From an uncultured Gemmatimonadales bacterium (lineage in GTDB: Bacteria > Gemmatimonadota > Gemmatimonadetes > Gemmatimonadales > GWC2-71-9), in contig CAWDYU010000002.1 of the NCBI GenBank assembly GCA_963806875.1, positions 145,426 through 209,425 on the forward strand: DNA of 64,000 bases, given 5' to 3'. The notes under the pieces are model-generated. The model saw nothing but the letters and a program-made list of their open reading frames with translations, did no database searches and had not been told where the DNA came from. Positions 5,048 to 59,993 of the stretch are shown here, one piece after another. Numbering within the stretch: the stretch's first letter is position 1; each line of letters begins with the position of its first letter. A program made the translations under genes and the position numbers.

Positions 5048-5131
5048 GCCGGGGTGGCGAAACTGGTAGACGCGAACGACTCAAAATCGTTTGCCGGCAA
5101 CGGCTTGCGGGTTCGAATCCCGCCCTCGGCA
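5048..5131 (+). tRNA. tRNA-Leu (anticodon CAA), type II with a long variable arm
   Basis: Manual cloverleaf. Acceptor stem GCCGGGG/CCTCGGC. Anticodon stem-loop aacga-CTCAAAA-tcgtt. 15-nt variable arm. T-arm gcggg-TTCGAAT-cccgc. Discriminator A. No encoded CCA. Confidence 0.9.
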
Positions 5132-39466: not shown

Positions 39467-39889
39467 CTAGCAGTCGCCGGGCAAGCGGGCGAGCACGGGC
39501 TCGAGCTTTCTGGCGTGGTCCACCCATTTCGACACGGTCCGGACGGGAGGAACGACACGGGTGAGATGCTTCTCCTCGTTGACCCGGGTCATCGCAGACA
39601 CCAGGTTCTCCGGCTTGCGTGCGCCCAGTTCCGTGACGTTCTGGGTGCCGGACGACTCGAGGAGCTGGCCGAACTCCGACCCGACGCCGGGCACCCGCAT
39701 CAGGTCCGCCTGGCGAGTCCACGTGAGCAGCTGCTTTCCGGAGATGCCCGTTGCCCGCTCCAGCTGGAGCCGTCCTTCGTCGGTTGCACATCGACCGAGG
39801 AGGTCGCCTGTCGTCTTGACGCCTGAAGCCGCCAGGCGAGTCGCGAAATGTTCACCAACGCCCTCGATTTCCTGAATCTTGTAAGTCAT
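39467..39889 (-). CDS. DUF4332 domain protein (helix-hairpin-helix-like)
   Basis: IQEIEGVGEHFATRLAASGVKTTGDLL and LMRVPGVGSEFGQLLESSG repeats, as in DUF4332. Confidence 0.6.
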   Translation of the reverse strand: MTYKIQEIEGVGEHFATRLAASGVKTTGDLLGRCATDEGRLQLERATGISGKQLLTWTRQADLMRVPGVGSEFGQLLESSGTQNVTELGARKPENLVSAMTRVNEEKHLTRVVPPVRTVSKWVDHARKLEPVLARLPGDC

Positions 39890-39941
39890 GCTGTGCCTCC
39901 AGCGCTACGGGTGAGTAGGGTGCCTCGTTGGGGGTTGAAGG

Positions 39942-39974
39942 GTGAAATATAACACAAATGACTTTAGATGGCAA
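39942..39974 (-). promoter_or_regulatory. Candidate promoter for the DUF4332 gene (TTG-N20-TATATTTC, minus strand), overlapping a palindrome-like site GTGAAATATAACAC
   Basis: Read on the minus strand: TTG (39974-39972), a 20-nt spacer, then TATATTTC (39951-39944), 55 nt upstream of the ATG at 39889. It lies in the only markedly AT-rich island of the window. Confidence 0.4.
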
Positions 39975-40142
39975 CACTTAACTGATTGCAGCATATTAGT
40001 TTACGTCGATCGCCCTATTCCGCCAGCGCACCGGCCAAGTGCTCTGGTTTGCAGCCGTTCGTTCGGCGGCCGCTCTGGCGGCTACCTTCCAGCGCCTCGC
40101 TCCTTCCAGGGATCACCGGTCGCTGCGCCACCCCGAGGGCCC

Positions 40143-40505
40143 ATGTCAGTCAGTCCGGAGTTCCGCAGTTTCGTCATCGAGCAGTTCGGGAGGGTTGCGC
40201 CGTCGATCCGGGCCCGCAGCATGTTCGGAGGGGTTGGTGTCTACTCGAGCGATCGGTTTTTTGCCCTGATCGCGGGCGACCAGGTCTACCTGAAGGTCGA
40301 CGACGACAACCGACCCACCTTTGAGGCGATCGGGATGGGGCCATTCCGGCCTTTCGGGCCCGATGGCGAAGCGATGCAGTATTACGAGTTGCGGGGGGAT
40401 CTTCTCGAGGATGCCGAGGCGCTCGAGCCGTGGGTGTCGGCCGCCATCGACGTGGCCGTACGCGCAAAATCGGGACGTCGTGGTAGGCGATCGGGAAGTG
40501 GTTGA
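40143..40505 (+). CDS. TfoX/Sxy N-terminal-domain protein
   Basis: SPEFRSFVIEQFGRVAPSIRARSMFGGVGVYSSDRFFALIAGDQVYLKVDD matches the TfoX_N pattern. The upstream in-frame extension from 39942 is AT-rich or compositionally odd and was rejected. Confidence 0.7.
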   Translation: MSVSPEFRSFVIEQFGRVAPSIRARSMFGGVGVYSSDRFFALIAGDQVYLKVDDDNRPTFEAIGMGPFRPFGPDGEAMQYYELRGDLLEDAEALEPWVSAAIDVAVRAKSGRRGRRSGSG

Positions 40506-45268: not shown

Positions 45269-45829
45269 CTACAACCTCGGCAACGTCACCCCGCGCTGCT
45301 TCTGGTACTTCCCCTTCTTGTCGGCGTAACTCACTTCGCAGTTGTCGTCGTCATCCGCCTCGAAGAACAACACCTGACAGATCCCCTCGTTGGCATAGAT
45401 CCGCGCCGGGAGCGGCGTCGTGTTGCTGATCTCGAGCGTCACGTGTCCCTCCCACTCCGGCTCGAACGGCGTGACGTTGGTGATGATGCCGCACCGCGCA
45501 TAGGTCGACTTGCCGACACAGATCGTGAGCACGTTGCGCGGGATGCGGAAATACTCGACGGAGCGAGCCAGCGCGAAGGAGTTGGGCGGAACGATGCAGA
45601 CCTCTCCCTGGAACTCGACGAGGCTGCGATTGTCGAACTTCTTCGGGTCGACCACGGCCGACAGCACGTTCGTGAAGATCTGGAACTCATCCGCCACCCG
45701 CATGTCGTAGCCATACGAGGAGACGCCGTAGGAGATGGCGCCGTCCCGCACCTGACCGTCAACGAACGGCTCGATCATGCCCTTTTCGGTGGCCATCCGG
45801 CGAATCCAGCGGTCCGACTTGATCGACAT
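45269..45829 (-). CDS. dcd: dCTP deaminase
   Basis: [13 protein letters not shown]..., [24 protein letters not shown], and [23 protein letters not shown]. Start at ATG 45829 inside the longer ORF. Confidence 0.92.
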
Positions 45830-45972: not shown

Positions 45973-46003
45973 TTGAAATCACCCTCGTCCGGCGGTAGGT
46001 TTG
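45973..46003 (+). promoter_or_regulatory. Candidate nuo operon promoter (TTG-N20-TAGGTTTG)
   Basis: TTG at 45973-45975, a 20-nt spacer, then an exact TAnnTTTG octamer at 45996-46003, 31 nt upstream of the nuoA GTG. Confidence 0.45.
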
Positions 46004-46010
46004 CCGAGGT

Positions 46011-46026
46011 TGTGAAATATTTCACG
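46011..46026. promoter_or_regulatory. Candidate operator: CRP/FNR-like palindrome TGTGAAATATTTCACG
   Basis: Perfect 14-bp palindrome GTGAAATATTTCAC at 46012-46025. It matches TGTGA-N6-TCACA at 9 of 10 positions. It lies between the promoter octamer and the GAGGA RBS of nuoA. Confidence 0.45.
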
Positions 46027-46033
46027 AGGATGG

Positions 46034-46405
46034 GTGACCGTGCTGCAGCCCTACATCCCGGTGCTCATGCTGCTGGTCTTCGCGGCAGCCAATGCCGTGC
46101 TGATTCTCGGAATTTCCGCGGTCTTCTCCAATTACCGTCCGACCGCCGTCAAGAGTGCCCCGTATGAGTCCGGGATGCCGGTGCTGGGCGACGCCCGTGA
46201 GCGGTTTTCGGTCAAGTTCTACCTCGTCGCCATGCTGTTCATCATCTTCGATATCGAGACGGTGTACATGATCCCGTGGGCGGTGGCGTTCAGCCAGCTT
46301 CCCGAGATGAGCGGCGTCCTGCTGCTCGAGATGCTGACCTTCGTCGGGATCCTTGGCGTCGGGTATGTCTACATCTGGAAACGGGGTGCACTGCAATGGG
46401 ACTGA
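46034..46405 (+). CDS. nuoA: NADH-quinone oxidoreductase subunit A
   Basis: Three transmembrane helices, with [32 protein letters not shown]. Confidence 0.93.
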
Positions 46406-47010
46406 CGCCGCCGCCCGATGATGCCTCCATCGAGTCGATGTCACCCAACTGGGTGACCACCCGGCTCGACTCCCTCACCGGGTGGGCGCGCTCGAGTTCG
46501 CTCTGGCCGATGCCGTTCGGCACGGCGTGCTGCGCCATCGAGTTCATGGCGACCGCGGCGTCGCGATTCGACATCGCCCGCTTCGGAATGGAGCGGATGA
46601 GTTTCTCGCCCCGGCAGGCCGATGTCCTGATCTGCGCCGGCCGTCTGCCGTTCAAGCTGGCCCCGGTGATCCGTCGGATCTGGGACCAGATGCCGCAGCC
46701 CAAGTGGGCAATCTCGATGGGCGCCTGCGCGTCCACGGGCGGCATTTTCGACAACTACTCGATGGTGCAGGGCATCGACACCATCATCCCGGTCGATGTC
46801 TACGTGCCCGGCTGCCCCCCACGGCCGGAAGGGCTGCTGTACGGGATCATGTTGCTGCACAAGAAAATTTCCGGGGAATCGCTCTTCGACCCGACGCTGC
46901 GCGTGGAACACCTGATGGGCCCGGACGGCCTCTTCCGTCGCCCCGAGCAGATCGACGAAGTCTCCGAACCTTTCGGCAACTCGGTGCACCAGACCCGGTC
47001 GTCGTCGTGA
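46396..47010 (+). CDS. nuoB: NADH-quinone oxidoreductase subunit B
   Basis: [19 protein letters not shown], and VPGCPPRPE (N2 cluster ligands). Confidence 0.95.
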
Positions 47011-47699
47011 CAGTGCCTGCGGGCGCGCCGATCGCGGCCGTGGCCGGGACCGCCAATCAGTCGCCGACCGCCCGGTATCAGGGTGTGGTGCCCGATGCCA
47101 CGCTGTCGCCGATGCGGGAGCGGTTCGGTGCCGCGATCGAGCGCGTCGTGCTGTCGTGCGGACAATCATCGGTGTACGTCGCTGCCCACGCCGCACACGC
47201 GGTGCTGGAATGGCTCCGCGATGACCCCGACCAGCATTTCGACTACCTGACCGACCTGACGTGCGTCGAGTATCGCGATCTCGAGTTGCCATTCGAGGTG
47301 GTGTACCAGCTCCGCTCGTTGACCCGCCGGGCGGATTTGCGCATCAAGATCGCGCTGGACGGTGACGGCCCCCTCGAGGTGGCGAGCGTCGTCGACCTGT
47401 GGATCGGCGCCAACTGGCTCGAACGCGAGGCGTACGACATGTTCGGGGTGGTGTTTCGTGGGCATCCCGATCCCCGCCGGATCCTGATGTGGGACACCTA
47501 CCAGGAGGGGCATCCGCTGCGGAAGTCGTTTCCCCTCCGGGGCCGGTTTTCCCGCGCCGAACAGACGCGACAGGCACTCGCCGCCAATCCCGAAGCGCAC
47601 TATTCGATGGAGGAGCTGTCGATCGCCGAGGCGTACGGCGACCTCCCGCGCGACATGCAGGAGCGTCTCGACGCCGGCGAGCGTGGGGTGGTGCGGTGA
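47007..47699 (+). CDS. nuoC: NADH-quinone oxidoreductase subunit C
   Basis: [30 protein letters not shown], and RKSFPLRG. Confidence 0.92.
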
Positions 47700-48979
47700 G
47701 CCGGCTGGTCGAGATGCAGCTGAGCACGCCGGGCGTCGACCGTCGGGGCGAGATCCGCCAGGTGCCGCTCGGCGTGCAGCGCCGCCCCAGCGAGTCGGTG
47801 CACGACGATTTCGGCGCGGAGCACATGCTGATCAACATCGGCCCGCAGCACCCGGCCACGCATGGCGTGCTCCGGCTCGTCGTTGAACTCGAGGGCGAGA
47901 CGGTGAAGCGGGTGATCCCGCACATCGGCTACCTGCATTCCGGCTTCGAGAAACTGGGCGAGTACCGGCACTACAACCAGATCATCCCGCTCACCGATCG
48001 CACCGACTACCTGTCACCGATGGCGAACAACGTCGCCTTCGCCCTCGCGGTCGAGGCGCTGCTCGGCATCGAGGTGACCGAGCGGTGCCGGCTGCTCCGC
48101 GTGATCGCGTGCGAGCTGTCCCGGATCATCTCCCACCTCGTGTGGGCCGGCACCACCGGGATCGATCTCGGCGCGATGACGCCGTTCCTGTGGATGTTCG
48201 AGCAGCGCGAACGCGTGTACAATCTCCAGGAAGCCTGGACGGGCGCGCGCCTGACGACGAGCATGACCCGCGTGGGCGGTCTCATGGCCGACATTCCCGA
48301 CGGCTGGGAAAAGGGGCTGCGCGAGTTCCTCCGTGACTTCCCGCGCACGTTGCGCGAGGTCGACACGATGTTCTCGCGCAACGGGATCTGGGTGGGCCGC
48401 ACGCAGGGCGTAGGCGTCATCTCCGCAGCCGACGCCATCAACTTCTCGCTCTCCGGCCCGATGCTCCGCGCCAGTGGCGTTGCGTACGACGTCCGCAAGG
48501 ACCGTCCGTACCTCGGTTATGACGAGTTCGACTTCGACGTTCCGGTTGGCGAGCACGGCGACATCTATGATCGCTACATCGTGCGCCTCGAGGAGATGTT
48601 CCAGTCGGTCAGGATCCTCGAGCAGGCGATCGATCGCCTGCGCCCGGGCCCGATCAACGTTGCCGACCCCCGGTTGGTGCTGCCCGGCAAGTCCGCGGCA
48701 ATGAGCGACATGGAGGCGATGATCTTCCACTTCAAGCAGGTGATGGAAGGCATCCGCCCGCCGGCGGGCGAGGTCTACTTCGGGGTGGAAAACCCCAAGG
48801 GTGAGCTGGGGTACTACCTGGTGTCCGACGGCACCGCCAAACCGGTGCGCTGGCGCATTCGCCCGCCATCGTTCCTGAACCTTGCGGCGCTGCCGCAGTT
48901 GTGCGAGGGAGCCCTGTTGTCCGACGTGATCGCCATCAACGCCAGCGTGGATATCGTGATGGGAGAGATCGACCGGTGA
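47696..48979 (+). CDS. nuoD: NADH-quinone oxidoreductase subunit D
   Basis: NIGPQHPATHGVLRL, GYLHSGFEKL, and a C-terminus ending VMGEIDR. Confidence 0.95.
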   Translation: MSRLVEMQLSTPGVDRRGEIRQVPLGVQRRPSESVHDDFGAEHMLINIGPQHPATHGVLRLVVELEGETVKRVIPHIGYLHSGFEKLGEYRHYNQIIPLTDRTDYLSPMANNVAFALAVEALLGIEVTERCRLLRVIACELSRIISHLVWAGTTGIDLGAMTPFLWMFEQRERVYNLQEAWTGARLTTSMTRVGGLMADIPDGWEKGLREFLRDFPRTLREVDTMFSRNGIWVGRTQGVGVISAADAINFSLSGPMLRASGVAYDVRKDRPYLGYDEFDFDVPVGEHGDIYDRYIVRLEEMFQSVRILEQAIDRLRPGPINVADPRLVLPGKSAAMSDMEAMIFHFKQVMEGIRPPAGEVYFGVENPKGELGYYLVSDGTAKPVRWRIRPPSFLNLAALPQLCEGALLSDVIAINASVDIVMGEIDR

Positions 48980-49476
48980 ACGCCGAACCGACCGAGACGT
49001 ACCAGCCGGTGTTCGTGGGCGCGGTGCGCGACCGACTGGAGGCGCTGCAGGAGAGCTATCCCACGAGAATGGCGCTGCTTCTCCCGGCGCTCTGGATGGT
49101 GCAGGAAGAGCGTGGCTGGATCGGCGACCCCGCCGTGCACGAGGTCGCCACGGTCCTCGAGCTGACACCCGCCTACGTCCGCGGCGTGCTCACGTTCTAC
49201 ACGATGTATCACCAGCATCCCGTCGGCCGACATTTCATCCAGGTCTGCACCACGTCACCGTGCAACATCTGCGGCGCAGAGGATGTCGTTGCCGCGGTTC
49301 TCGCCGAGAGCGGATGTGGCGAGCTGGGTGCCACGTCCCCCGACGGACGGTTCACGGTGATCGAGGTCGAATGCCTCGGTGCGTGCGGCTTCGCGACGCC
49401 GATGCTGATCGATGATGACTTCATCGAGTCGGTGACGCCCGACACCGTGTCGGCCCTGCTTGCGCGGTATCCCTGA
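48976..49476 (+). CDS. nuoE: NADH-quinone oxidoreductase subunit E
   Basis: 2Fe-2S ligands in VCTTSPCNICGA ... VECLGACG. Confidence 0.93.
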   Translation: MNAEPTETYQPVFVGAVRDRLEALQESYPTRMALLLPALWMVQEERGWIGDPAVHEVATVLELTPAYVRGVLTFYTMYHQHPVGRHFIQVCTTSPCNICGAEDVVAAVLAESGCGELGATSPDGRFTVIEVECLGACGFATPMLIDDDFIESVTPDTVSALLARYP

Positions 49477-50783
49477 TGGGATTCCCGCACCCGATCCATC
49501 CCCGCGAGACACCGGTGCTGTCGACCCACTTCGGCGATCCCGGTGCGCGCACCTTCGCCGGCTGGACCGAGCGCGGCGGCTACGCGGCGCTGCGGAGCGC
49601 GCTCGGCATGGCGCCAGAAGCGATCGTGGACGAGGTCAAGGCATCCGGGCTCCGCGGCAGGGGAGGGGCAGGTTTCCCGACCGGGCTCAAGTGGTCGTTC
49701 ATGCCGAAGGACACGTCGCGCACCCACTATCTGTGCTGCAATGCCGACGAATCGGAGCCCGGCACGTTCAAGGACCGCGAGATCCTCCGCTGGACGCCGC
49801 ACGCCCTGATCGAGGGGTGCGCGATTGCCGCACTCGCGATCCGCGCCGAGACGACCTACATCTACATCCGCGGCGAATACACGGAACCGCACCGGATCCT
49901 CCAGGCCGCGGTCGAGGAGGCCTACGCCGCCGGTGCGCTCGGTGCGGACGCATTCGGATCGGGCAAGCGACTGGATGTCGTGGTGCATCGCGGCGCGGGT
50001 GCGTACATCTGCGGTGAGGAAACCGCGATGATGAACTCGCTCGAGGGCCGCCGCGGCAACCCGCGGATCAAGCCGCCGTTCCCCGCCGTGGCCGGCCTCT
50101 TCGGCATGCCGACGACGATCAACAATGTCGAGACGCTCGCGGCCGTGCCCCACATCATCACGCGTGGCGCGGCGTGGTACAGTTCACTCTGCCTCGGCAA
50201 TCCCAAGAGCACCGGTACGAAGCTGATCTCGGTGTGCGGTCACGTGCAGCGCCCTGGGACCTATGAGATCACGCTCGGTTTCCCGATGCGCGACCTGATC
50301 TTCGACCTCTGCGGCGGAATGCGCCCCGGGCGCACGCTCAAGGCGGTGATCCCCGGGGGCTCCTCGGTGCCGATCATGACACCCGAGGAGGTCGACGGCT
50401 GCGCCACCGACTATGAGGGAATCGTCGCAGCGGGGTCGTTGCTCGGCTCCGGCGGGATGATTGTCATGGACGATTCCACCGACCTGGTCTACCAGGTGAT
50501 GCGTCTGGCGCGCTTCTATGCGCACGAGAGCTGCGCACAGTGTACCAACTGCCGCGAGGGCACCGCCTGGACGACCCGCATTCTCGAGCGGATCCTTCGG
50601 GGGGAGGGAAAGGAATCCGATCTTGCGCTGCTCATGGACCTCGCCGACAACATGACCGGGAAGACGATCTGCGTGCTGAGCGATTCGTGTGCGACCCCCG
50701 TGGTGAGCGGGATCCAGAAGTTCCGCGCCGACTTCGACGCCTACTTGACCGGTGCCGCGGCACCGATCGCGATCGGGGCCTGA
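49476..50783 (+). CDS. nuoF: NADH-quinone oxidoreductase subunit F
   Basis: GLRGRGGAGFPTGLKW, CNADESEPGTFKDR, and ESCAQCTNCREG. Confidence 0.96.
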   Translation: MGFPHPIHPRETPVLSTHFGDPGARTFAGWTERGGYAALRSALGMAPEAIVDEVKASGLRGRGGAGFPTGLKWSFMPKDTSRTHYLCCNADESEPGTFKDREILRWTPHALIEGCAIAALAIRAETTYIYIRGEYTEPHRILQAAVEEAYAAGALGADAFGSGKRLDVVVHRGAGAYICGEETAMMNSLEGRRGNPRIKPPFPAVAGLFGMPTTINNVETLAAVPHIITRGAAWYSSLCLGNPKSTGTKLISVCGHVQRPGTYEITLGFPMRDLIFDLCGGMRPGRTLKAVIPGGSSVPIMTPEEVDGCATDYEGIVAAGSLLGSGGMIVMDDSTDLVYQVMRLARFYAHESCAQCTNCREGTAWTTRILERILRGEGKESDLALLMDLADNMTGKTICVLSDSCATPVVSGIQKFRADFDAYLTGAAAPIAIGA

Positions 50784-50784
50784 C

Positions 50785-52352
50785 ATGGTGACCGATGAGA
50801 CAGTCTCGGTCACGGTCGACGGTGCCGTGGTGCAGGTGCCGCGAGGCATCACCATCATCGAAGCGGCCAAGCAGGCCGGCGTGCTGGTGCCCCACTATTG
50901 CTACCATCCGTCACTGTCGTCGCCAGCCGTCTGTCGCATGTGCCTGGTGCACGTGGAGAAGATGCCGAAGCTGGTGCCCGCATGCGTGACGCCGGTGGCC
51001 GAGGGCCAGGTGATCTCGGTCCACGCACCGGAGGCCCGCAAGGCGCGCGAGGGGGTGCTCGAGTTCCTGCTGATCAATCATCCGCTCGACTGCCCGATCT
51101 GCGACCAGGCCGGGGAGTGCGAACTCCAGGACTTCGTCTTCCAGGAGGGGCAAGCCCGCACCCGATACAGCGAGTATGCCAAGCGGTACAATCCCGTGGA
51201 AGACTTCGGGGACGACGTGTTGTACGTCCCGAATCGCTGCATCCTGTGCACCCGATGCGTGCGCTTCATGGATGAGATGGCCGAAGAGCCGGTTCTCGCC
51301 GTGGCCGAGCGGGGCGACAGGGCCTACATCGCGATCGACCCGCACGAGCGGCTCGACCATCCATGGTCGGGCAACGTGGTCGACCTCTGTCCCGTCGGAT
51401 CGCTGGTTTCGCGCGACTTCCTGCACCGGGCGCGCGCGTGGGACCTCGACAAGTCGGCATCGATCTGTCCGGGGTGCACGCAGGGGTGCAACATCACCAT
51501 CGAGACCCGTGACGAGGCGGTGGTGCGGCTTCGTCCACGGCCCAACCTCGAGGTGAACCGCCACTTCATGTGCGATACGGGACGTCTCGACTATCGATGG
51601 ATGAACCATGGTGACCGTATCGAGGCGCCGCTCGTCCGCGACCATGACGGACTCGTCGCCGCCGACTGGGACGCCGCGGTGGCCCGCCTCCATCTCCTGG
51701 TGCATGACACCACGGGGCCGGTGGTCGTGCTCACCAGCGGCCGCGCGTCGAGTGAATCACTCGGGTGGCTGATGAGGATGCTGGAAGCGCGCTCGACCGT
51801 GGCGGCGATGAAAGTGCCAATGGGCGATGAGGCGCCACTGCCCGGCGTGCCCGGGCTGGCACTCCGCGCCGAACGCGCCGGCAATCTCTTCGGCGGCCGG
51901 ATGGTTGGCGTGCGTGACGCCTGGTCCGACGCGATCGGCAGGGTCGGGACCGCCGGGCTGGTGATCCTCCACGACGTCGACCTCAACGATGCCGAGGCCG
52001 CCGCGATTGCGGGCGCCACGACCTGGTGCACTTCGCGACTTCGAGCGACGATCGCCTTCGCACTGCTGACCTGGTGCTGCCGGTGACGATGATGACGGAG
52101 GAGCAGGGCGTGTATGTGAACCGTGATCACCGTGCGCAGCGCTACCTGCCTGCCCGCAATGCGCCCGCCATGGCACGCCCGGCGTGGTGGGTCGCTTCGC
52201 GGGTGTGGCAGCATGCCGGCGCGGGCCGGACGGTGCCGGCGACCACGTCCGAGGCGTTCGCGGCGCTGCCCGCGTTTGGTGGCCTGACCCACCGTGACCT
52301 CGGCTATGGCGGCAGGGTGCTCGACGTGGCGTCTGCCAGGGCGGGCCGATGA
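50785..52352 (+). CDS. nuoG: NADH-quinone oxidoreductase subunit G (short form). The frame is broken by an apparent 1-nt deletion near 52021-52023.
   Basis: CYHPSLSSPAVCRMCLV, HPLDCPICDQAGECELQD, and CILCTRCVRF. ...AIAGAT (frame of 50785) continues as LVHFATSSDDRLRTADLVLPVTMMTEEQGVYVN in the frame of ORF 52026..52352. Confidence 0.88.
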
Positions 52353-53587
52353 CGCCGGACATGAAGGGATTCCTGCTCTTCAGCGCGATCAAGCTTGTCG
52401 TGATCTTCACCGCGTTGATGGTGGGCGTCGCGATGATCACGCTGATGGAACGCAAGGTTGCGGGGCTGATCCAGAACCGTCCCGGCCCGAATCGCGCAGG
52501 CCCGGGCGGGCTGTTGCAGCCGGTGGCCGACGGCATCAAGAACTTCATCAAGGAAGAGACGCGGCCGGCCGGTGCCAACGGCGCCCTCTTCATGCTGGCA
52601 CCGGCGCTCTCGTTCGTGCCTGCGGTGATGCTGCTCGCCGTGATCCCGCTGGCGGCACCCCTCCCGCTCGATGTCGACTGGAACCTCCCGCTGATCGGCG
52701 CTGTGTCCTACCACGGCGCGTTGCCGATTTCGGTGGCCGACCTGCCGATCGGTTTTCTCTTCGTCCTCGCGGTCTCTTCCCTGGGCGTCTACGGCGTCGC
52801 CCTCGCGGGCTGGTCGTCGAACAGCAAGTACTCGCTCCTCGGCGGGCTCCGCGCGAGCGCGCAGATGGTCTCGTACGAAGTGGCGATGGGGCTCTCCCTG
52901 ATCCCGATCCTGCTGCTCACCGGCAACGTCTCGTTCAGCGAGATCGTGCGGACGCAGCAGGCCGGACTCTGGTTCGTCGGGCCGCTCTTCCTGTCGTTCT
53001 TCATTTTCCTCGTGTCGGGATTTGCAGAAACCAACCGCTTGCCGTTCGACCTCCCGGAGGCCGAGGCGGAGCTGGTGGCCGGGTACCACTCGGAATACAG
53101 CGCGATGAAGTTCTCGCTGTTCATGATCGCCGAATTCGCGCATGTGGTCACCATCTCGGCGATGGTCGCCACGCTCTTCTTCGGCGGGTGGGACATTCCG
53201 TTCACGAGCTGGGATGAACAAGGCGGGTTGCTGCAGACCATTGCCACCCACGCGATGTTCTTCGCCAAGATGTTCTTCTGGATCTTCTTCGTGATGTGGA
53301 TTCGCTGGACGCTGCCGCGGTTTCGTTATGACCAGCTCATGGCGCTGGGATGGAAGGTGCTGCTGCCGCTCGCGCTGGTGTACATCATGGTGACCGCCGT
53401 CGCGATCTGGGCAGCCGACCGCCTTCTCGGCTGGGGGGCACCGAGGCCCCTCGCCTTCTTCCTGCTGGCGGTCAATGTCGTCGTCGCGTGGCTGGTCTTC
53501 TTCGTCCTCGACCGGGGCCGAGTCATCCGGGGAAGCGATCGGCGGCTGCGCAGCGCAATGGCGGCTGATGCCGCGGTGGGGTCCTGA
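52349..53587 (+). CDS. nuoH: NADH-quinone oxidoreductase subunit H
   Basis: MERKVAGLIQNRPGPNR, GWSSNSKYSLLGGLRASAQMVSYE, and ETNRLPFDLPEAEAELV. Confidence 0.96.
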   Translation: MTPDMKGFLLFSAIKLVVIFTALMVGVAMITLMERKVAGLIQNRPGPNRAGPGGLLQPVADGIKNFIKEETRPAGANGALFMLAPALSFVPAVMLLAVIPLAAPLPLDVDWNLPLIGAVSYHGALPISVADLPIGFLFVLAVSSLGVYGVALAGWSSNSKYSLLGGLRASAQMVSYEVAMGLSLIPILLLTGNVSFSEIVRTQQAGLWFVGPLFLSFFIFLVSGFAETNRLPFDLPEAEAELVAGYHSEYSAMKFSLFMIAEFAHVVTISAMVATLFFGGWDIPFTSWDEQGGLLQTIATHAMFFAKMFFWIFFVMWIRWTLPRFRYDQLMALGWKVLLPLALVYIMVTAVAIWAADRLLGWGAPRPLAFFLLAVNVVVAWLVFFVLDRGRVIRGSDRRLRSAMAADAAVGS

Positions 53588-54093
53588 TGGCAATCGGCGT
53601 GAAGGTGATGAAGCGGCCGGGGTCGGGTGTGTCGTACGTGCGCGCCACGCTCAAGGGCATGGCGCTGACGTTCAAGCACCTTCTCCAGCCGCAGGTCACG
53701 ATGGAGTACCCGGAAGAGAAGCACACGGCCGAGTGGCGGATCGCAACGCGTTGGCGCGGCACCCACCGCATGATGACCGACGAGCAGGGCCGCTCGAAGT
53801 GCGTGGCGTGTGGGCTGTGCCCACAGGTGTGTCCCGCCAACTGCATCAAGCTCGTGCCGGGTGAGGACGAGGACGGCAACCGCTACCCGTTGATCTACGA
53901 AATCGACGAGTTTCGGTGCGTGTTCTGCGGGTACTGCCAGGAGGTCTGCCCGGAAGAGGCGATCCACGTCGGCGTGCACTATGAGAACTCGGAGTATTCG
54001 CGCGAACGATTCGTCTACGACCTCGAACGCCTGTCGGCGCAGACCCATCCGGTGTCGACGCTCTGGGATCCGTCCGATCCCCGAGGCCAGTAG
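53587..54093 (+). CDS. nuoI: NADH-quinone oxidoreductase subunit I
   Basis: Two 4Fe-4S motifs, CVACGLCPQVCP and CVFCGYCQEVCP. Confidence 0.95.
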   Translation: MAIGVKVMKRPGSGVSYVRATLKGMALTFKHLLQPQVTMEYPEEKHTAEWRIATRWRGTHRMMTDEQGRSKCVACGLCPQVCPANCIKLVPGEDEDGNRYPLIYEIDEFRCVFCGYCQEVCPEEAIHVGVHYENSEYSRERFVYDLERLSAQTHPVSTLWDPSDPRGQ

Positions 54094-54657
54094 GTGGACG
54101 TCGTCACGGTCGTCTTCGGGGTGTTTGCCGCGTGGGCGGTGGTCTCCGCGCTGATCTGCGTCACCCGTCGCAGCCCGATCTCATCGGCACTCTGGCTCGT
54201 ATCCACGATGTTCGCCCTGGCAGGGATCTACGTCCTGCTCAACGCGGAGTTCATCGCTGCGATCCAGGTCCTGGTGTACGCGGGCGCCGTGATGGTGCTC
54301 TTCCTCTTCGTGATCATGCTCCTGAACGTCGATGCCGAGATCGGCCCCACCCGGCGACGATACGGGTGGCTCGTCGGCGTCGGGGCAGCGGCGGTCCTCG
54401 GCGCCCAGCTTCTCATGATGCGTGGCTATACCGTACAGCGCCTCGCTGATGAAGTCTCGACCATGCCATCGGGCGTCGACCCGGCGCTGGTGTTTCCCGA
54501 GGGGGCAGCTGCCCGGGCCGCGACGGCGAGTCGTGGCGTGGTGGGCGGCATCGCGGAGCCACTCTTCCAGGCCTACCTGATACCGTTCGAGATCACCTCC
54601 GTGCTCCTGCTCGCCGCGGCGATTGGCGCGGTCGTCCTCGCGAAGAAGAGGCTCTGA
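54094..54657 (+). CDS. nuoJ: NADH-quinone oxidoreductase subunit J
   Basis: Hydrophobic protein with [27 protein letters not shown]. Position in the operon. GTG start. Confidence 0.9.
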
Positions 54658-54953
54658 TGCTTCTCGGACCGTCGCTGGCCCTGTCTGCGGTGCTCTTCGC
54701 CATCGGTGTCGGCGGGGTGCTGGTACGGCGCAACGCGATTGTGCTGTTCATGTGCATCGAGCTGATGCTCAACGCCGTGAACCTGACGTTCATCGCCCTC
54801 GCCCAGGTCCACGGGATGAGTGGGCAGATCATGGTGTTCTTCGTGATGACGGTGGCGGCCGCGGAAGCCGCGGTGGGCCTGGCGATCATCCTGGCGATCT
54901 TCCGGCATGCGCAGACGGTCGATCTCACCCAGCTCAACCTGCTGAAGGGCTGA
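54657..54953 (+). CDS. nuoK: NADH-quinone oxidoreductase subunit K
   Basis: 98 aa with three transmembrane helices, and [13 protein letters not shown] ... [11 protein letters not shown]. Confidence 0.93.
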
Positions 54954-54957
54954 CCGC

Positions 54958-56928
54958 GTGACCGATTTCGTGTGGCTCGCGGTGGCACTCCCGCTGCTCG
55001 GGGCGATCATCAACGGCGTGATCGCGGTGGTCCGGCCCTCCGCGAAGTCGGCGGTCTCATTGGTCGGGGTCGGGACGCTGGTCGCAGCATTCGGCGTCGC
55101 CGTGATGGTGGCCCTCGAATCCGCGCGCGGCGATGGCGCCGCCACGATCGTCCACCTCTGGCGATGGATGCCGGTTACCGAGCGCCTCGACATCGACCTG
55201 GCGCTGGTCGTCGATCGACTGTCGGTGGTGATGCTGCTGGTGATCACCGGCGTCGGCTCGTTGATCCATCTCTTCTCCGTGGGCTACATGCGCGCGGATG
55301 CCGGTTACGCCCGCTACTTCGCATACCTGAATCTCTTCGTCGCGTTCATGCTGGTGCTCGTGCTCGGCGCATCCCTTCCGGTCTCGTTCATCGGGTGGGA
55401 GGGGGTGGGGCTGTGCTCCTACCTGCTCATCGGGTTCTGGTTCGACGACAAGGCGAACGCCGACGCCGGCAAGAAGGCATTCCTCGCCAACCGGATCGGC
55501 GACTTCGGCGTGTTGATGGCGATGTTCCTCCTCTGGTGGCATGTGGGGACCCTCGACTTTGCGGAGATCGCCGAGCGCGCACCGGCGCTGCTCCCGCTCG
55601 GTGGTGCGGTAGTGACCGGGATCACCCTGTTCCTCTTCCTCGGCTGCACCGGCAAGTCGGCGCAGATCCCGCTCTTCGTCTGGCTGCCCGACGCGATGGC
55701 GGGCCCGACACCGGTGTCGGCACTGATCCACGCCGCGACGATGGTGACCGCTGGTGTCTTCCTCGTGGTCAGGATGGGCGTGCTCTTCACGATGTCGCCG
55801 GTGACCCAACTCGTGGTGACCCTTACCGGCGCCCTCACGGCGTTCCTGGCCGCGACCATCGCGCTGCGTCAATACGACATCAAGAAGGTGCTGGCGTACT
55901 CGACCGTGTCCCAGCTTGGCTACATGTTCATCGGCGTGGGCACCGGCGCGTATACCGCCGGCGTCTTCCACCTCGTCACGCACGCATTCTTCAAGGCGCT
56001 GCTCTTCCTCGGTGCCGGTAGCGTCATTCACGCGATGCACCACGCGCAGCATGCGGCCCACTCGGAACTCGACAGTCAGGACATGCGCAACATGGGTGGC
56101 CTGCGGCGCGCGATGCCCTGGACGTTCCTCCTGATGGGGCTGGCGACGCTCGCGATCGCCGGTGTGCCGCCGTTCGCGGGGTTCTTTTCCAAGGACGAGA
56201 TACTCGCGGCGGCCTTTGCCCGCGGCGACGTGAACATTGCATACCTGGCGAGTTGGGCGCTCGGTCTTGCCGCAGCGCTGATGACGGCGTTCTACATGGC
56301 TCGCCTGATGGCCATGACGTTCATGGGGCGGTTCCGCGGCGGGCCGGCGATGGAGCCGCACCTGCACGAGGCACCGTGGATCATGACCGCACCGCTGGTG
56401 GTGCTCGGTGTCCTCAGCGTCACCGGTGGCGGCCTGAACCTGCCGGGATTCGCCGGAGGTTCCCACTTCCTCGAGCACTGGCTCGAGCCGGTGCTGGCGC
56501 CCGCTGCCGCGCTCGCGACGCCACTGTCCCATCCGCATGGCATGACCGAATGGCTCCTGATCGGCGGTGCGATCGCAGCCGCACTGATCGGCCTGGTCGC
56601 CGGCGTGCGGACCACGCTCGGCCGACCGATTGCGCTCCCCGCCGAACAACCCGCCGAGCGTGGGCTCGCCGGGCTGCTCGCCGCGAAGTATCACGTCGAC
56701 GAGATCTACGATGCGCTCATCGTGCGGCCCCTCCTCTGGTTCTCGACCACGGTGCTGTGGCGGGGGGTCGACCAGTTCATCGTCGACCGCATCGCCGTGG
56801 GTGGAACCGCACGAGTCACCAAGGGACTCGGCTGGCTCGGATCGCGGTTGCAGAACGGTCAGGTTGCGTTCTACGTCGCGATGTTTGCGGTCGGCGCGGT
56901 CATCATCCTTCGCACGCTGGCCCGGTAG
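54958..56928 (+). CDS. nuoL: NADH-quinone oxidoreductase subunit L
   Basis: Antiporter-like subunit with GWEGVGLCSYLLIGFW, KSAQIPLFVWLPDAMAGPTPVSALIHAATMV, and a long C-terminal lateral-helix region. Confidence 0.95.
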   Translation: MTDFVWLAVALPLLGAIINGVIAVVRPSAKSAVSLVGVGTLVAAFGVAVMVALESARGDGAATIVHLWRWMPVTERLDIDLALVVDRLSVVMLLVITGVGSLIHLFSVGYMRADAGYARYFAYLNLFVAFMLVLVLGASLPVSFIGWEGVGLCSYLLIGFWFDDKANADAGKKAFLANRIGDFGVLMAMFLLWWHVGTLDFAEIAERAPALLPLGGAVVTGITLFLFLGCTGKSAQIPLFVWLPDAMAGPTPVSALIHAATMVTAGVFLVVRMGVLFTMSPVTQLVVTLTGALTAFLAATIALRQYDIKKVLAYSTVSQLGYMFIGVGTGAYTAGVFHLVTHAFFKALLFLGAGSVIHAMHHAQHAAHSELDSQDMRNMGGLRRAMPWTFLLMGLATLAIAGVPPFAGFFSKDEILAAAFARGDVNIAYLASWALGLAAALMTAFYMARLMAMTFMGRFRGGPAMEPHLHEAPWIMTAPLVVLGVLSVTGGGLNLPGFAGGSHFLEHWLEPVLAPAAALATPLSHPHGMTEWLLIGGAIAAALIGLVAGVRTTLGRPIALPAEQPAERGLAGLLAAKYHVDEIYDALIVRPLLWFSTTVLWRGVDQFIVDRIAVGGTARVTKGLGWLGSRLQNGQVAFYVAMFAVGAVIILRTLAR

Positions 56929-56931
56929 ACG

Positions 56932-58494
56932 ATGACTGCATTCCTCGCCTCGATCGGCTACGAGCACTGGATCCTGCAGGTCCTGCTGGGCCTGCCCCTG
57001 CTTGGCATGCCGCTGATCCTGGTATTTCCACGTCACATGGCGCGATGGATCGCGCTCACGGTTGCCCTCACCGAACTGGTACTCGGGCTCGGCATCTGGT
57101 GGGCATTCGATCCGGCGAACCCGGCGTTGCAGTTCGTCACCGACGTCGACTGGATCGGACGATTCGGGATCGGCTACCGAGTCGGCATTGACGGATTGTC
57201 GGTGCTGATGGTGCTCCTCTCCGTCATCATGATGCCGCTGGTGGTGTGGGGAAGCTGGCGGGGGATCGACCAGAAACAGCGGGGCTTCTACACCCTCCTG
57301 CTCGCGCTCAAGACCGGGATGCTGGGCGTCTTCGTATCGACCGACCTCTTCCTCTTCTATTTCTTCTGGGAACTGCTCCTGATCCCGATGTATTTCCTGA
57401 TCGGCATCTGGGGCAGCAACAACCGGCTCTACGCCGCCACGAAGTTCGTGATCTACACCTTCGTGGGCTCGTTGCTGATGCTGGTGGCGATCGTCTGGAT
57501 GGTGTGGACCGTGGGGAAGGGAACCGGTACCTACTCCTTTGCCTACGAACACCTGCTGGAACACGCCGCCCTGATGCAGCCGTGGGCGGGCTGGTTGTTC
57601 GTCGCGTTCGCCCTGGCCTTTGCGGTGAAGGTGCCGCTCTTCCCGTTCCACACCTGGCTGCCCGATGCGCACACCGAGGCGCCGACCGCAGGGTCGGTCG
57701 ACCTCGCGGTGATCCTGCTGAAGATGGGCACGTACGGCTTCCTGCGGTTTGCGATTCCGTTCTTTCCCTCATTTGCGCTTTCGGAAACCGTCGGACTGGT
57801 GATGGCAACGCTTGCCGTCACGGGGATCGTGTACGCAGCGCTCGTCGCGATGGTGCAGCCGGACCTCAAGCGGCTCATCGCGTATTCGTCGGTGAGTCAC
57901 CTCGGGTTCGTGATGCTGGGGATCTGGGGGAGTACCGTCGAGAGCGTGCAGGGCGCGATCCTCGTGATGGTCTCGCACGGCCTGTCGACCGGCGCCCTCT
58001 TTTTCGTGATCGGCATGCTCTATGAACGGCGTCACACACGGAACATCGCCGACTTCGGGGGACTCGCGAAGGCCGCGCCGTTGATGGCGGCCGCGTTCAC
58101 CATCACGGCGTTCTCATCCATCGGCCTCCCCGGCCTCAACGGCTTCATCGGCGAGTTCCTGGTGCTGATCGGATCGTTCGGTCGCTACCCGGTGTTGGTG
58201 GGCATTGCGACCACGGTCGTGGTCTTCTCGGCAGCTTACATGCTGTGGGCCACCCAGCGCGTCTTCTTCAATCGGATGACCAACCCGCTCAACGAATCGA
58301 TCGGCGATCTCACCCGCCGTGAGATCGCGGTGCTCGTGCCGCTCATCCTGGCGATGTTCTGGATCGGGCTGTATCCCGGTCCGCTGCTGCGCCGCACCGA
58401 GGGCGCGGCACGCCGCTATATCGAGATGGTGCAGCCGCACCTTCCACCGGCCAGGATGCAGCAGCCCGGCGCCACCGCGGCGGGGTCGCACTGA
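56932..58494 (+). CDS. nuoM: NADH-quinone oxidoreductase subunit M
   Basis: FYFFWELLLIPMYFLIGIWG, FPFHTWLPDAHTEAPTAGSV, and YSSVSHLGFV. Confidence 0.95.
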   Translation: MTAFLASIGYEHWILQVLLGLPLLGMPLILVFPRHMARWIALTVALTELVLGLGIWWAFDPANPALQFVTDVDWIGRFGIGYRVGIDGLSVLMVLLSVIMMPLVVWGSWRGIDQKQRGFYTLLLALKTGMLGVFVSTDLFLFYFFWELLLIPMYFLIGIWGSNNRLYAATKFVIYTFVGSLLMLVAIVWMVWTVGKGTGTYSFAYEHLLEHAALMQPWAGWLFVAFALAFAVKVPLFPFHTWLPDAHTEAPTAGSVDLAVILLKMGTYGFLRFAIPFFPSFALSETVGLVMATLAVTGIVYAALVAMVQPDLKRLIAYSSVSHLGFVMLGIWGSTVESVQGAILVMVSHGLSTGALFFVIGMLYERRHTRNIADFGGLAKAAPLMAAAFTITAFSSIGLPGLNGFIGEFLVLIGSFGRYPVLVGIATTVVVFSAAYMLWATQRVFFNRMTNPLNESIGDLTRREIAVLVPLILAMFWIGLYPGPLLRRTEGAARRYIEMVQPHLPPARMQQPGATAAGSH

Positions 58495-59993
58495 TGCCCA
58501 TCGACCTCTCGACACCGGGCGGCGCCTTGCTCGCCCTGCTCCCGGAGCTCGTGCTCACCGGCTGGGCACTCGTCGTATTGCTGGTGGTCGCGTGGCGGCA
58601 CCGGACGGCTCGCGATTCCCGGTTCGTCGGCGTGTTGTCGATCGTGGGATACGTGCTCGCCCTGCTCGCGACCTCCTGGCTCGCCTGGCGCGGAGCGCGT
58701 GCCGATGGCTTGTCGCTGATGATCGCGCTCGACGGTTTCCGGTTCGCGAGCGATGCGCTCCTGCTCTGGATTGCCGGCGCCGTCGCCGTGCTGTCGTTGC
58801 GGTGGCTCGAGCGGCAGGGAATCCTGGCGCCAGAGTACTACGTGCTGCTGATGCTCGCGACCGTGGGCATGATGCTGCTCGCCGGCGCCGCCGACCTGAT
58901 CACGCTCTTTCTCGGCCTCGAGGTCATGTCGATCTCGGTGTACGTGCTCGCCGGGTATGACCGCACCCGGCGCTCATCCGCGGAGGCCGCACTCAAGTAC
59001 TTCCTGATCGGGTCGTTTGCGACCGGCTTCCTGCTGTACGGCATCGCACTCATCTATGGCGCCACGGGACAGTTCAATCTCTCCCTCATCGGTGCCCAGT
59101 TTGCCGCCACGGAGCCGACACTCATGGCGAAGCTCGGGATGGGCCTGCTGCTGATCGGCTTCGCGTTCAAGGTGGCGGCGGTGCCCTTTCACGCGTGGGC
59201 GCCTGACGTCTACGAGGGCTCGCCCACACCGGTCACCACCTACATGGCGAGCGGCGTCAAGGCAGCGGCGTTCCTCGCACTGACTCGTGTGCTTGCCGAG
59301 GCGTTCCCGGCATACGTCGATCTCTGGCGACCGATCATCTGGTGGCTGGCGGTCATCACCATCCTCGTCGGCAACCTCGTCGCCCTGGCACAGACGTCGA
59401 TCAAGCGCATGCTCGCGTACAGTGCCGTGGCGCACGCCGGCTACCTCTTCCTCGCACTCTGGGCTCACTCGGATGAGGGCACCGCGGCCGTGCTGGTGTA
59501 TCTCCTCGCCTACTCGGTGACCACCGTGGCGGCTTTCGGGATACTCGCGTCGATCGAACGGGCCGGTGCACGCACGGTGCTGATCACCGACCTCGAGGGG
59601 CTGTATTCGGTCCGTCCATTCGCATCGCTGGGGCTCAGCGTCTGCATGCTCTCGCTGCTGGGGTTCCCCGGAACCTTCGGGTTCATCGGCAAGTGGTACC
59701 TCATTTCCGCCACGCTGGGGCAGGGCGAGGTGCTGCTTGCTGTCGTGGCGATGATCGGCAGCGGCATCTCGATCGGCTACTACCTCCCCATCGTGCTGGC
59801 AATGACGCTCAAGCCGACCCGAACCCGCCAGGCGCACCAGACGATCCGCTTTCCACGCCCGGCCAAGATCGCCGTCGCCATCTGCGTGGTCGCCATCCTG
59901 GTGCTCGGCATCTGGCCCAATACCGTGCTCGACTTCGCGACGCAGGAGGCCGTGCAGCTTCGCCGGATCGCGACGCCGATCATGACCCGCTGA
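58494..59993 (+). CDS. nuoN: NADH-quinone oxidoreductase subunit N
   Basis: LGLEVMSISVYVLAG, FKVAAVPFHAWAPDVYEGSPTPV, and AYSAVAHAGY. Confidence 0.94.
   Translation: MPIDLSTPGGALLALLPELVLTGWALVVLLVVAWRHRTARDSRFVGVLSIVGYVLALLATSWLAWRGARADGLSLMIALDGFRFASDALLLWIAGAVAVLSLRWLERQGILAPEYYVLLMLATVGMMLLAGAADLITLFLGLEVMSISVYVLAGYDRTRRSSAEAALKYFLIGSFATGFLLYGIALIYGATGQFNLSLIGAQFAATEPTLMAKLGMGLLLIGFAFKVAAVPFHAWAPDVYEGSPTPVTTYMASGVKAAAFLALTRVLAEAFPAYVDLWRPIIWWLAVITILVGNLVALAQTSIKRMLAYSAVAHAGYLFLALWAHSDEGTAAVLVYLLAYSVTTVAAFGILASIERAGARTVLITDLEGLYSVRPFASLGLSVCMLSLLGFPGTFGFIGKWYLISATLGQGEVLLAVVAMIGSGISIGYYLPIVLAMTLKPTRTRQAHQTIRFPRPAKIAVAICVVAILVLGIWPNTVLDFATQEAVQLRRIATPIMTR

Follow-up and report, generated by a model that had tools for sequence, protein, structure and literature searches.

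Across the Gemmatimonadales, the nuoA-N operon is preceded by a conserved 18-bp operator directly downstream of the -10 element of its promoter and, judging from its sequence, this operator is most likely bound by a Rex-type dimeric repressor that would control nuoA-N by NADH/NAD+. Complex I is the main NADH entry into the respiratory chain and, to our knowledge, the control of its level is known for few model bacteria only. The Gemmatimonadota are abundant in soil and have barely been studied genetically. An order-wide nuo operator represents a concrete regulatory circuit, which predicts a feedback of NADH/NAD+ on complex I.

In the window—i.e. the whole 64,000-nucleotide stretch of DNA analysed here, from an uncultured Gemmatimonadales bacterium—the operator is found among the following features:

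45269-45829, - strand: dcd (dCTP deaminase; TIGR02274 match), a divergent neighbour and not the target of the site
45973-45978, + strand: -35-like hexamer TTGAAA of the nuo promoter (TTGAAw conserved across loci)
45996-46001, + strand: -10-like hexamer TAGGTT, the first six bases of TAGGTTTG (TAnnTT conserved across loci)
46007-46010, + strand: predicted transcription start region, 6-9 nt past the -10-like hexamer by standard sigma-70 geometry
46010-46027, no strand assigned: Rex-operator-like operator TTGTGAAATATTTCACGA, delimited with a PWM of orthologous sites (core palindrome at 46012-46025)
46026-46030, + strand: Shine-Dalgarno GAGGA of nuoA, read from the sequence and overlapping the final two bases of the operator
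46040-46405, + strand: nuoA, 121 aa (NADH-quinone oxidoreductase subunit A by NCBIfam and Pfam)
46040-59993, + strand: nuoA-N operon, encoding the 14-subunit complex I and presumed to be the regulated unit

The core of the operator, GTGAAATATTTCAC, is a perfect 14-bp palindrome within the sequence ttGTGAAATATTTCACgagga (46010-46030). With one flanking base on each side (46011-46026) it reads TGTGA-AATATT-TCACG, which scores 9/10 against TGTGA-N6-TCACA. The original prediction had given this palindrome, its coordinates and the 9/10 match correctly, and it was also right that the palindrome starts 7 nt past TAGGTTTG (45996-46003) and ends at GAGGA, the palindrome abutting position 46026, the first G of that motif. 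It had further argued that an AT-rich palindrome would not be accidental in a background of ~70% GC. The measured GC content is lower, at 66.9% in the whole window and 58-59% locally around the site, and the argument fails for 14-bp palindromes overall: 12 perfect ones are found in the window vs 8.2 +/- 3.2 in shuffles, so that palindromy alone is unremarkable. It does stand for the AT-rich subclass, as GTGAAATATTTCAC is the sole perfect 14-bp palindrome with at least 10 A/T in the window (0.025 expected). Order-wide conservation is the decisive argument for a real, predicted site, and a stronger one than these chance statistics.

To describe this conservation, we used 80 Gemmatimonadales nuoA loci and the window, i.e. 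81 sequences totalling 631,139 bases. The original prediction was staked on the site recurring upstream of nuoA in related genomes, and GTGA-N6-TCAC is indeed present there in 69 of the 81 sequences, while the surrounding intergenic DNA has diverged. Its carriers include the closed chromosome OY970263.1 and a MAG with the label Gemmatimonas (L038). This is the conservation upstream of orthologous targets in related genomes that is expected of a Rex operator. The pattern is also exclusive to nuoA in the sampled DNA. Specifically, it occurs 75 times in the 631,139 bases, 69 of them at nuoA, and the remaining six have GC-rich spacers and number about what we estimate for chance; likewise, a PWM scan of all 631 kb reveals no site of at least 18 bits other than the nuoA operators. 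The 12 sequences that lack the site belong mainly to two clades that keep the promoter (L024, L037, L043, L054, and L059; and L030, L031, L060, and L077), and another locus, L055, has a decayed copy of the operator, ggcaaaaattcacga; L023 and L057 are also among the 12. Loss in two clades suggests that the circuit is dispensable, and these clades are natural comparators for co-loss of the regulator.

The order-wide alignment of sites delimits a conserved block of exactly 18 bp, WWGTGAA-WWWW-TTCAC(G/T)A. As a PWM, the 69 orthologous sites (49 of them distinct) have the following composition:

Positions 1-2: always A or T
Positions 3-7: GTGAA, 100%
Positions 8-11: A/T-rich
Position 12: T in about 90% (TTCAC in ~91%)
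Positions 13-16: TCAC, 100%
Position 17: G or T in ~96%, not the A of the Rex consensus
Position 18: A in 98%
Flanks on both sides: no conservation

With this PWM, the operator of the window scores 33.2 bits, and the runner-up in the window 12.8 bits. The latter is a look-alike, GGTGAAATATAACACA (39940-39957), which falls well below the true sites (at least 18.7 bits) and lies in an unusually A/T-rich spacer (39890-40142), flanked by genes for DUF4332 (39467-39889, - strand) and TfoX_N (40143-40505, + strand) proteins. We set it aside as probably a chance match.

Conservation extends to the sequences upstream of the operator. Of the 69 loci with the site, 68 have a TTGAAw hexamer followed by TAnnTT at a distance of 16-18 nt, and this pair is also found in loci that have lost the operator. 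The -10-like element varies among TAGGTT, TACGTT, TACCTT, TAATTT, TAGATT, and TACAAT, and bases 7-8 of the octamer vary across loci. In the window, TTGAA-N18-TANNTT occurs once vs 0.01 expected. Based on this conservation, TTGAAw-N17-TAnnTT probably functions as the nuo promoter and, together with the operator, it provides a first anchored promoter model for Gemmatimonadales. A promoter scan with the E. coli consensus did not call the nuo promoter, as TAGGTT shares just 3 of its 6 bases with TATAAT. For the octamer at 45996-46003, first taken for a -7 element, a better reading is a -10-like hexamer, TAnnTT, which has its -35 element, TTGAAw, 17 nt upstream. A Bacteroidetes-type promoter (-7 TAnnTTTG, -33 TTTG) was considered for the same sequence and rejected, as only TAnnTT is conserved and its pairing with TTGAAw 16-18 nt upstream is a sigma-70 arrangement.

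The operator keeps its place relative to this promoter. In 64 of 68 loci, 9-14 nt separate the -10 element from GTGA, and the operator of the window begins 8 nt past the -10-like hexamer. By contrast, anywhere from 10 to 51 nt lie between the operator and the start codon across loci. Furthermore, the operator is retained at nuoA in six loci whose upstream DNA is free of dcd for at least 3.9 kb. The near-fixed distance to the -10 element, the variable distance to the start codon, and the retention of the site without dcd together indicate that the element belongs to the nuo promoter, and not to the ribosome-binding site or to dcd. Relative to the predicted transcription start, the operator would cover approximately +2 to +20. 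This is a repressor-type position, as had been proposed, and it implies direct transcriptional control of complex I, a further element of the original prediction that an operator-like site tied to the nuo promoter supports. The dyad symmetry of the site and its order-wide conservation similarly agree with the idea of a selected site for a dimeric regulator, i.e. a predicted protein-binding site.

The nuoA-N open reading frames tile contiguously on the + strand, with NCBIfam confirming NuoA, B, D, F, H, L, and N, and they presumably form a single transcript. The start codon of nuoA is probably the GTG at 46040 (9 nt after GAGGA), because most NuoA homologues are 121 aa long and an ATG or GTG (mostly ATG) aligns with 46040 in 75 of 80 loci. 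The in-frame GTG at 46034, which had been named as the start, is an alternative. In the window, NuoA shares 98% identity with its counterpart from a Gemmatimonadales MAG, and its close relatives all belong to this order; the MAG nearest to the window is JACDBX01. Upstream, the divergent dcd-nuoA pair is kept in about 70 of 80 loci with intergenic spacers of 113-422 bp, and pilT is the next gene beyond dcd in the window. Where these spacers are shortest, the nuo promoter and operator leave little room, so the dcd promoter must be very close. The sole RNA gene detected in the window is a tRNA-Leu(CAA) at 5048-5131. One locus in the comparison, L074 (DASXTD010000193.1), is labelled as a Chloroflexota MAG and has a Gemmatimonadales-type dcd-nuoA locus with the operator and a NuoA 73% identical; this contig is probably mis-binned.

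Rex is an NADH/NAD+-sensing repressor, a winged-helix/Rossmann protein that does not belong to the CRP/FNR family. The operator of the window, TTGTGAAATATTTCACGA, matches the Rex consensus TTGTGAANNNNTTCACAA (TTGTGAA-N4-TTCACAA) at 13 of 14 positions, and the sole mismatch is the G at position 17. The order-wide site is accordingly an 18-bp inverted repeat of the Rex type that deviates at position 17. Half of the orthologous sites also start with AAGTGAA rather than TTGTGAA and, with G or T at position 17, this makes the outer positions of the operator asymmetric. The site moreover abuts the promoter, as predicted from conservation, of an operon for NADH re-oxidation and respiration, as would be expected of a Rex target. 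Under the Rex reading, a low NADH/NAD+ ratio would leave a repressor bound to the operator at the transcription start, and the bound protein would block RNA polymerase binding, open-complex formation, or promoter escape, which would keep complex I synthesis low. A build-up of NADH would release the repressor from DNA, and derepression of nuo would restore NADH oxidation, closing a homeostatic feedback loop.

The Rex operator (ROP) was reportedly described at Streptomyces respiratory operons by Brekasis and Paget in 2003. The closest parallel to the Gemmatimonadales operator is found in this genus, where the ROP sites (nuoA1-N1, cydA1B1CD, atpI, and rex-hemAC1DB) are 18-bp inverted repeats of the TTGTGAA-N4-TTCACAA type, and where complex I genes are likewise a target, in a soil bacterium that is GC-rich and respires, and promoter or start are overlapped. 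Specifically, Rex of Streptomyces avermitilis binds and represses nuoA1-N1 according to EMSA, ChIP, and footprinting, with cydA1, atpI, and rex as further targets (PMC5355995). The cydA1 operator of this species covers -3 to +25, and the footprinted atpI operator has the right arm TTCACGA (PMC5355995), which is identical to that of the window operator. The 2 systems also differ. In Streptomyces, the operator of nuoA1 has a GC-rich spacer and lies across the -35 to -10 region, whereas the site in the window follows the -10 element and has a strictly A/T spacer; and Rex and its NADH response have been shown experimentally in Streptomyces, while our searches located no rex gene for Gemmatimonadales.

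Half-sites and an A/T-only 4-bp spacer are shared with the Rex boxes of S. aureus and other Bacillales (e.g. the S. aureus consensus TTGTGAAW4TTCACAA; PMC2883068), from which the window differs at one base (G17). In these low-GC Firmicutes, however, the boxes serve fermentation and anaerobic genes and an A/T spacer carries little information, whereas the spacer in the window is kept A/T against a background of 67% GC.

The regulator gene was sought near nuo and more widely. Using tblastn with Rex of B. subtilis and T. thermophilus (the latter query checked against PDB entry 1XCB) and with CRP and FNR of E. coli, we find neither rex nor crp or fnr, be it in the window or within +/-4 kb of nuoA in the 80 loci, and Pfam reveals no regulators among the small open reading frames neighbouring nuo. 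The window is therefore without such a gene, as had been noted from the start. Three protein searches and cluster look-ups retrieved no Rex labelled as Gemmatimonadota. For example, the protein search with Thermus Rex returned only Deinococcota-like matches, as well as a soil contig (L081, 58% GC) that is not Gemmatimonadales-like. A search for Rex among PLSDB plasmid records found it in Bacteroidales, namely Bacteroides and Parabacteroides, and in no Gemmatimonadota record. A search of cluster representatives gave 606 Rex clusters, and the labels obtained for ~20 GC-rich representatives were Planctomycetota, Poribacteria, and Bacillota, with no Gemmatimonadota among them. When a profile of three sequences was used for a protein search, the Eisenbacteria group alone received a label, which places Rex in Candidatus Eisenbacteria. 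In the literature searched, we found no description of Rex for Gemmatimonadetes or Gemmatimonadota. Since no Gemmatimonadota-labelled rex gene was retrieved, we can only infer the identity of the regulator.

Relatives and other GC-rich bacteria do carry the gene together with the motif. The FCB group includes both Eisenbacteria and Gemmatimonadota. A Rex gene and a similar site have been reported in another member of this group, Caldithrix (PMC5317091). For seven of the GC-rich Rex representatives, we examined the contigs; L087 is the best tetranucleotide match to Gemmatimonadales. Two rex-bearing contigs of 70-73% GC have a perfect or near-perfect operator with an A/T spacer directly upstream of rex: in L089, the operator TTGTGAATGATTTCACAA overlaps a TAGGTT -10 element, and in L090 the operator is TTGTGAAAACATTCACAC. 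Only for L090 does the encoded Rex match Eisenbacteria.

A scan of metagenomes reveals how widely the motif occurs with such genes. The pattern, SSS-N3-TTGTGAAA-W3-TTCAC-N-A-Y-N3-SSS, has GC-rich flanks and was built so that nuoA sites of Gemmatimonadales would be passed over. We examined 80 of its 102 matches (L093-L172), nearly all on contigs of 55-72% GC. Among these 80, 43 sites sit 1-2 nt before the ATG of rex, in KsgA-rex synteny, and 5 lie upstream of nuo genes:

L111: nuoA
L101: nuoB
L132: nuoH-N
L147: nuoF
L164: nuoD

Other targets in the scan include nqrA (Na+-NQR), etfB, and a cupredoxin gene of the plastocyanin/azurin family. Sites at targets other than rex, on unrelated contigs, have the following coordinates:

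L116: 5309-5339
L122: 2159-2189
L152: 3314-3344
L132: 3101-3131 (nuoH-N half-operon)

With 43 sites at rex, 5 at nuo, and others at nqrA and etfB, the motif with an A/T spacer is a marker of Rex regulons among GC-rich bacteria of the environment, in which NADH:quinone oxidoreductases recur as targets.

Many of the rex sites come from a large family of GC-rich (66-71%) soil contigs, in which the operator TTGTGAAAT(T/A)ATTCACAA is found 1-2 nt before the rex ATG, just after a KsgA-like gene (e.g. L118:5736-5766 and L106:7589-7619). This arrangement suggests tight autoregulation of rex, possibly from a leaderless mRNA. The Rex proteins of this family are 64-77% identical to P0424 and 53-62% identical to Eisenbacteria Rex. 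The autoregulated rex genes of GC-rich (66-73%) bacteria, Eisenbacteria included, share with Gemmatimonadales the canonical operator with its A/T spacer, and their motif is also found at nuo. By contrast, the operator in these lineages (L089, L090, and L093-L172) precedes rex and abuts its start codon, and their composition separates them from Gemmatimonadales. A tetranucleotide PCA separates the autoregulated-rex lineage in this way, and consequently it lends no support to the presence of Rex in Gemmatimonadales themselves.

Given the half-site core, we considered whether a CRP/FNR-family dimer binds the site as a repressor at the transcription start, with cAMP, oxygen, or another molecule as effector. 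The GTGA-N6-TCAC core and the spacing of the half-sites are those of the classical CRP site, and the window copy differs from that site at one of ten positions. CRP/FNR-family genes are near-universal in bacteria, and a candidate protein is therefore very probably present in these genomes. Nevertheless, we regard this reading as unlikely. The core is invariant, but the outer T and A that are conserved in a CRP/FNR site are not: among 55 distinct orthologous sites, T precedes GTGA in ~49% and A follows TCAC in ~2%, while A7, T12, and A18 are conserved in the Rex pattern. The site lies downstream of the -10 element, away from the activator placements (~-41.5 or -61.5), and the single site in 631 kb is ill-suited to a global CRP-like regulon with many sites. 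Matches similar to TGTGA-N6-TCACA are even below chance in the window (6 vs 18.4 expected at 2 or fewer mismatches), homologues of crp or fnr did not turn up near nuo in the tblastn searches (window and 80 loci), and no case of nuo being controlled by CRP, on a par with that of Rex, is known to us. Rex thus fits better than CRP/FNR on account of the position, the single target, the invariant GTGAA/TTCAC half-sites, and the conserved A18. The original prediction had named a CRP/FNR-family or similar dimeric regulator; the CRP/FNR label does not agree with the outer bases, and the wider wording, which covers Rex, stands.

Next in rank, and again improbable, is some other lineage-specific dimeric repressor, neither Rex nor CRP/FNR, that would be dedicated to nuo and whose motif would be merely Rex-like. 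The exclusivity of the site to nuoA in the sampled DNA and the outer positions that depart from those of the Rex box (half of the sites start with AAGTGAA, and position 17 is G/T) would suit such a protein, as would the failure to find a regulator in the window and 80 loci and the loss of the site in two clades that kept the promoter, as for a dispensable local circuit. Against it, we estimate that chance convergence on a 13/14 Rex match at a classical Rex target is very unlikely, and the same motif marks rex genes in other GC-rich bacteria. Taken together, the versions in which the binder is not a canonical Rex—i.e. a CRP/FNR paralogue that acts purely as a repressor, or a lineage-specific protein, with a regulon of roughly complex I alone and convergence on the Rex box—are possible, and we hold them doubtful. 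In a milder version, Rex may be present with its regulon reduced to one operon, in an aerobic phylum from which no Rex is known to have been described.

An RNA-level or intrinsic promoter element that needs no DNA-binding protein (an A/T-rich stretch transcribed first, or a hairpin at the 5' end of the nuo mRNA with an effect on its stability or translation) is the least credible explanation and very improbable: the sequence would lie at the extreme 5' end of the transcript, where a 7-bp hairpin is possible beside the Shine-Dalgarno, but its predicted fold is no stabler than shuffled sequences (z = -0.45), and an Rfam search gave no match. Among 55 distinct sequences, the four core pairs are invariant with no compensatory core changes, five sequences break the fifth pair, and between a quarter and half leave the outer pairs unpaired. 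Moreover, it is the distance to the -10 element that is fixed while that to the Shine-Dalgarno and start codon varies (10-51 nt). The covariation and above-background stability of a structured cis-regulatory RNA are thus both lacking, and strict base identity (e.g. position 7 is A and never T in an A/T-rich spacer) points to sequence-specific recognition by a protein. Among other known boxes, that of NrdR, considered because of the neighbouring dcd, was rejected, as its half-sites have a different order and the site stays with nuoA where dcd is missing. The motifs of Fur/PerR/Zur (7-1-7), LacI-type cre (central CG), and LexA do not fit either.

If the binder is Rex, as we favour, a well-known regulon would be extended to a new phylum, which is useful rather than surprising. 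If it is not, the operator would represent convergent evolution at the same metabolic control point. The nuo operator itself is single and placed past the -10 element, unlike a CRP site within a dense regulon, and it conserves A7/T12 and A18 in place of the outer T/A of the classical CRP sequence.

One site from the metagenomes has the same core as that of the window. It is found in L166 (524-554; TTGTGAAATATTTCACAA), ~140 nt upstream of a truncated gene of unknown function on the minus strand. This contig has the highest tetranucleotide similarity to Gemmatimonadales among the metagenome contigs (r = 0.97, 71% GC), and the site could be a second member of the regulon in a relative.
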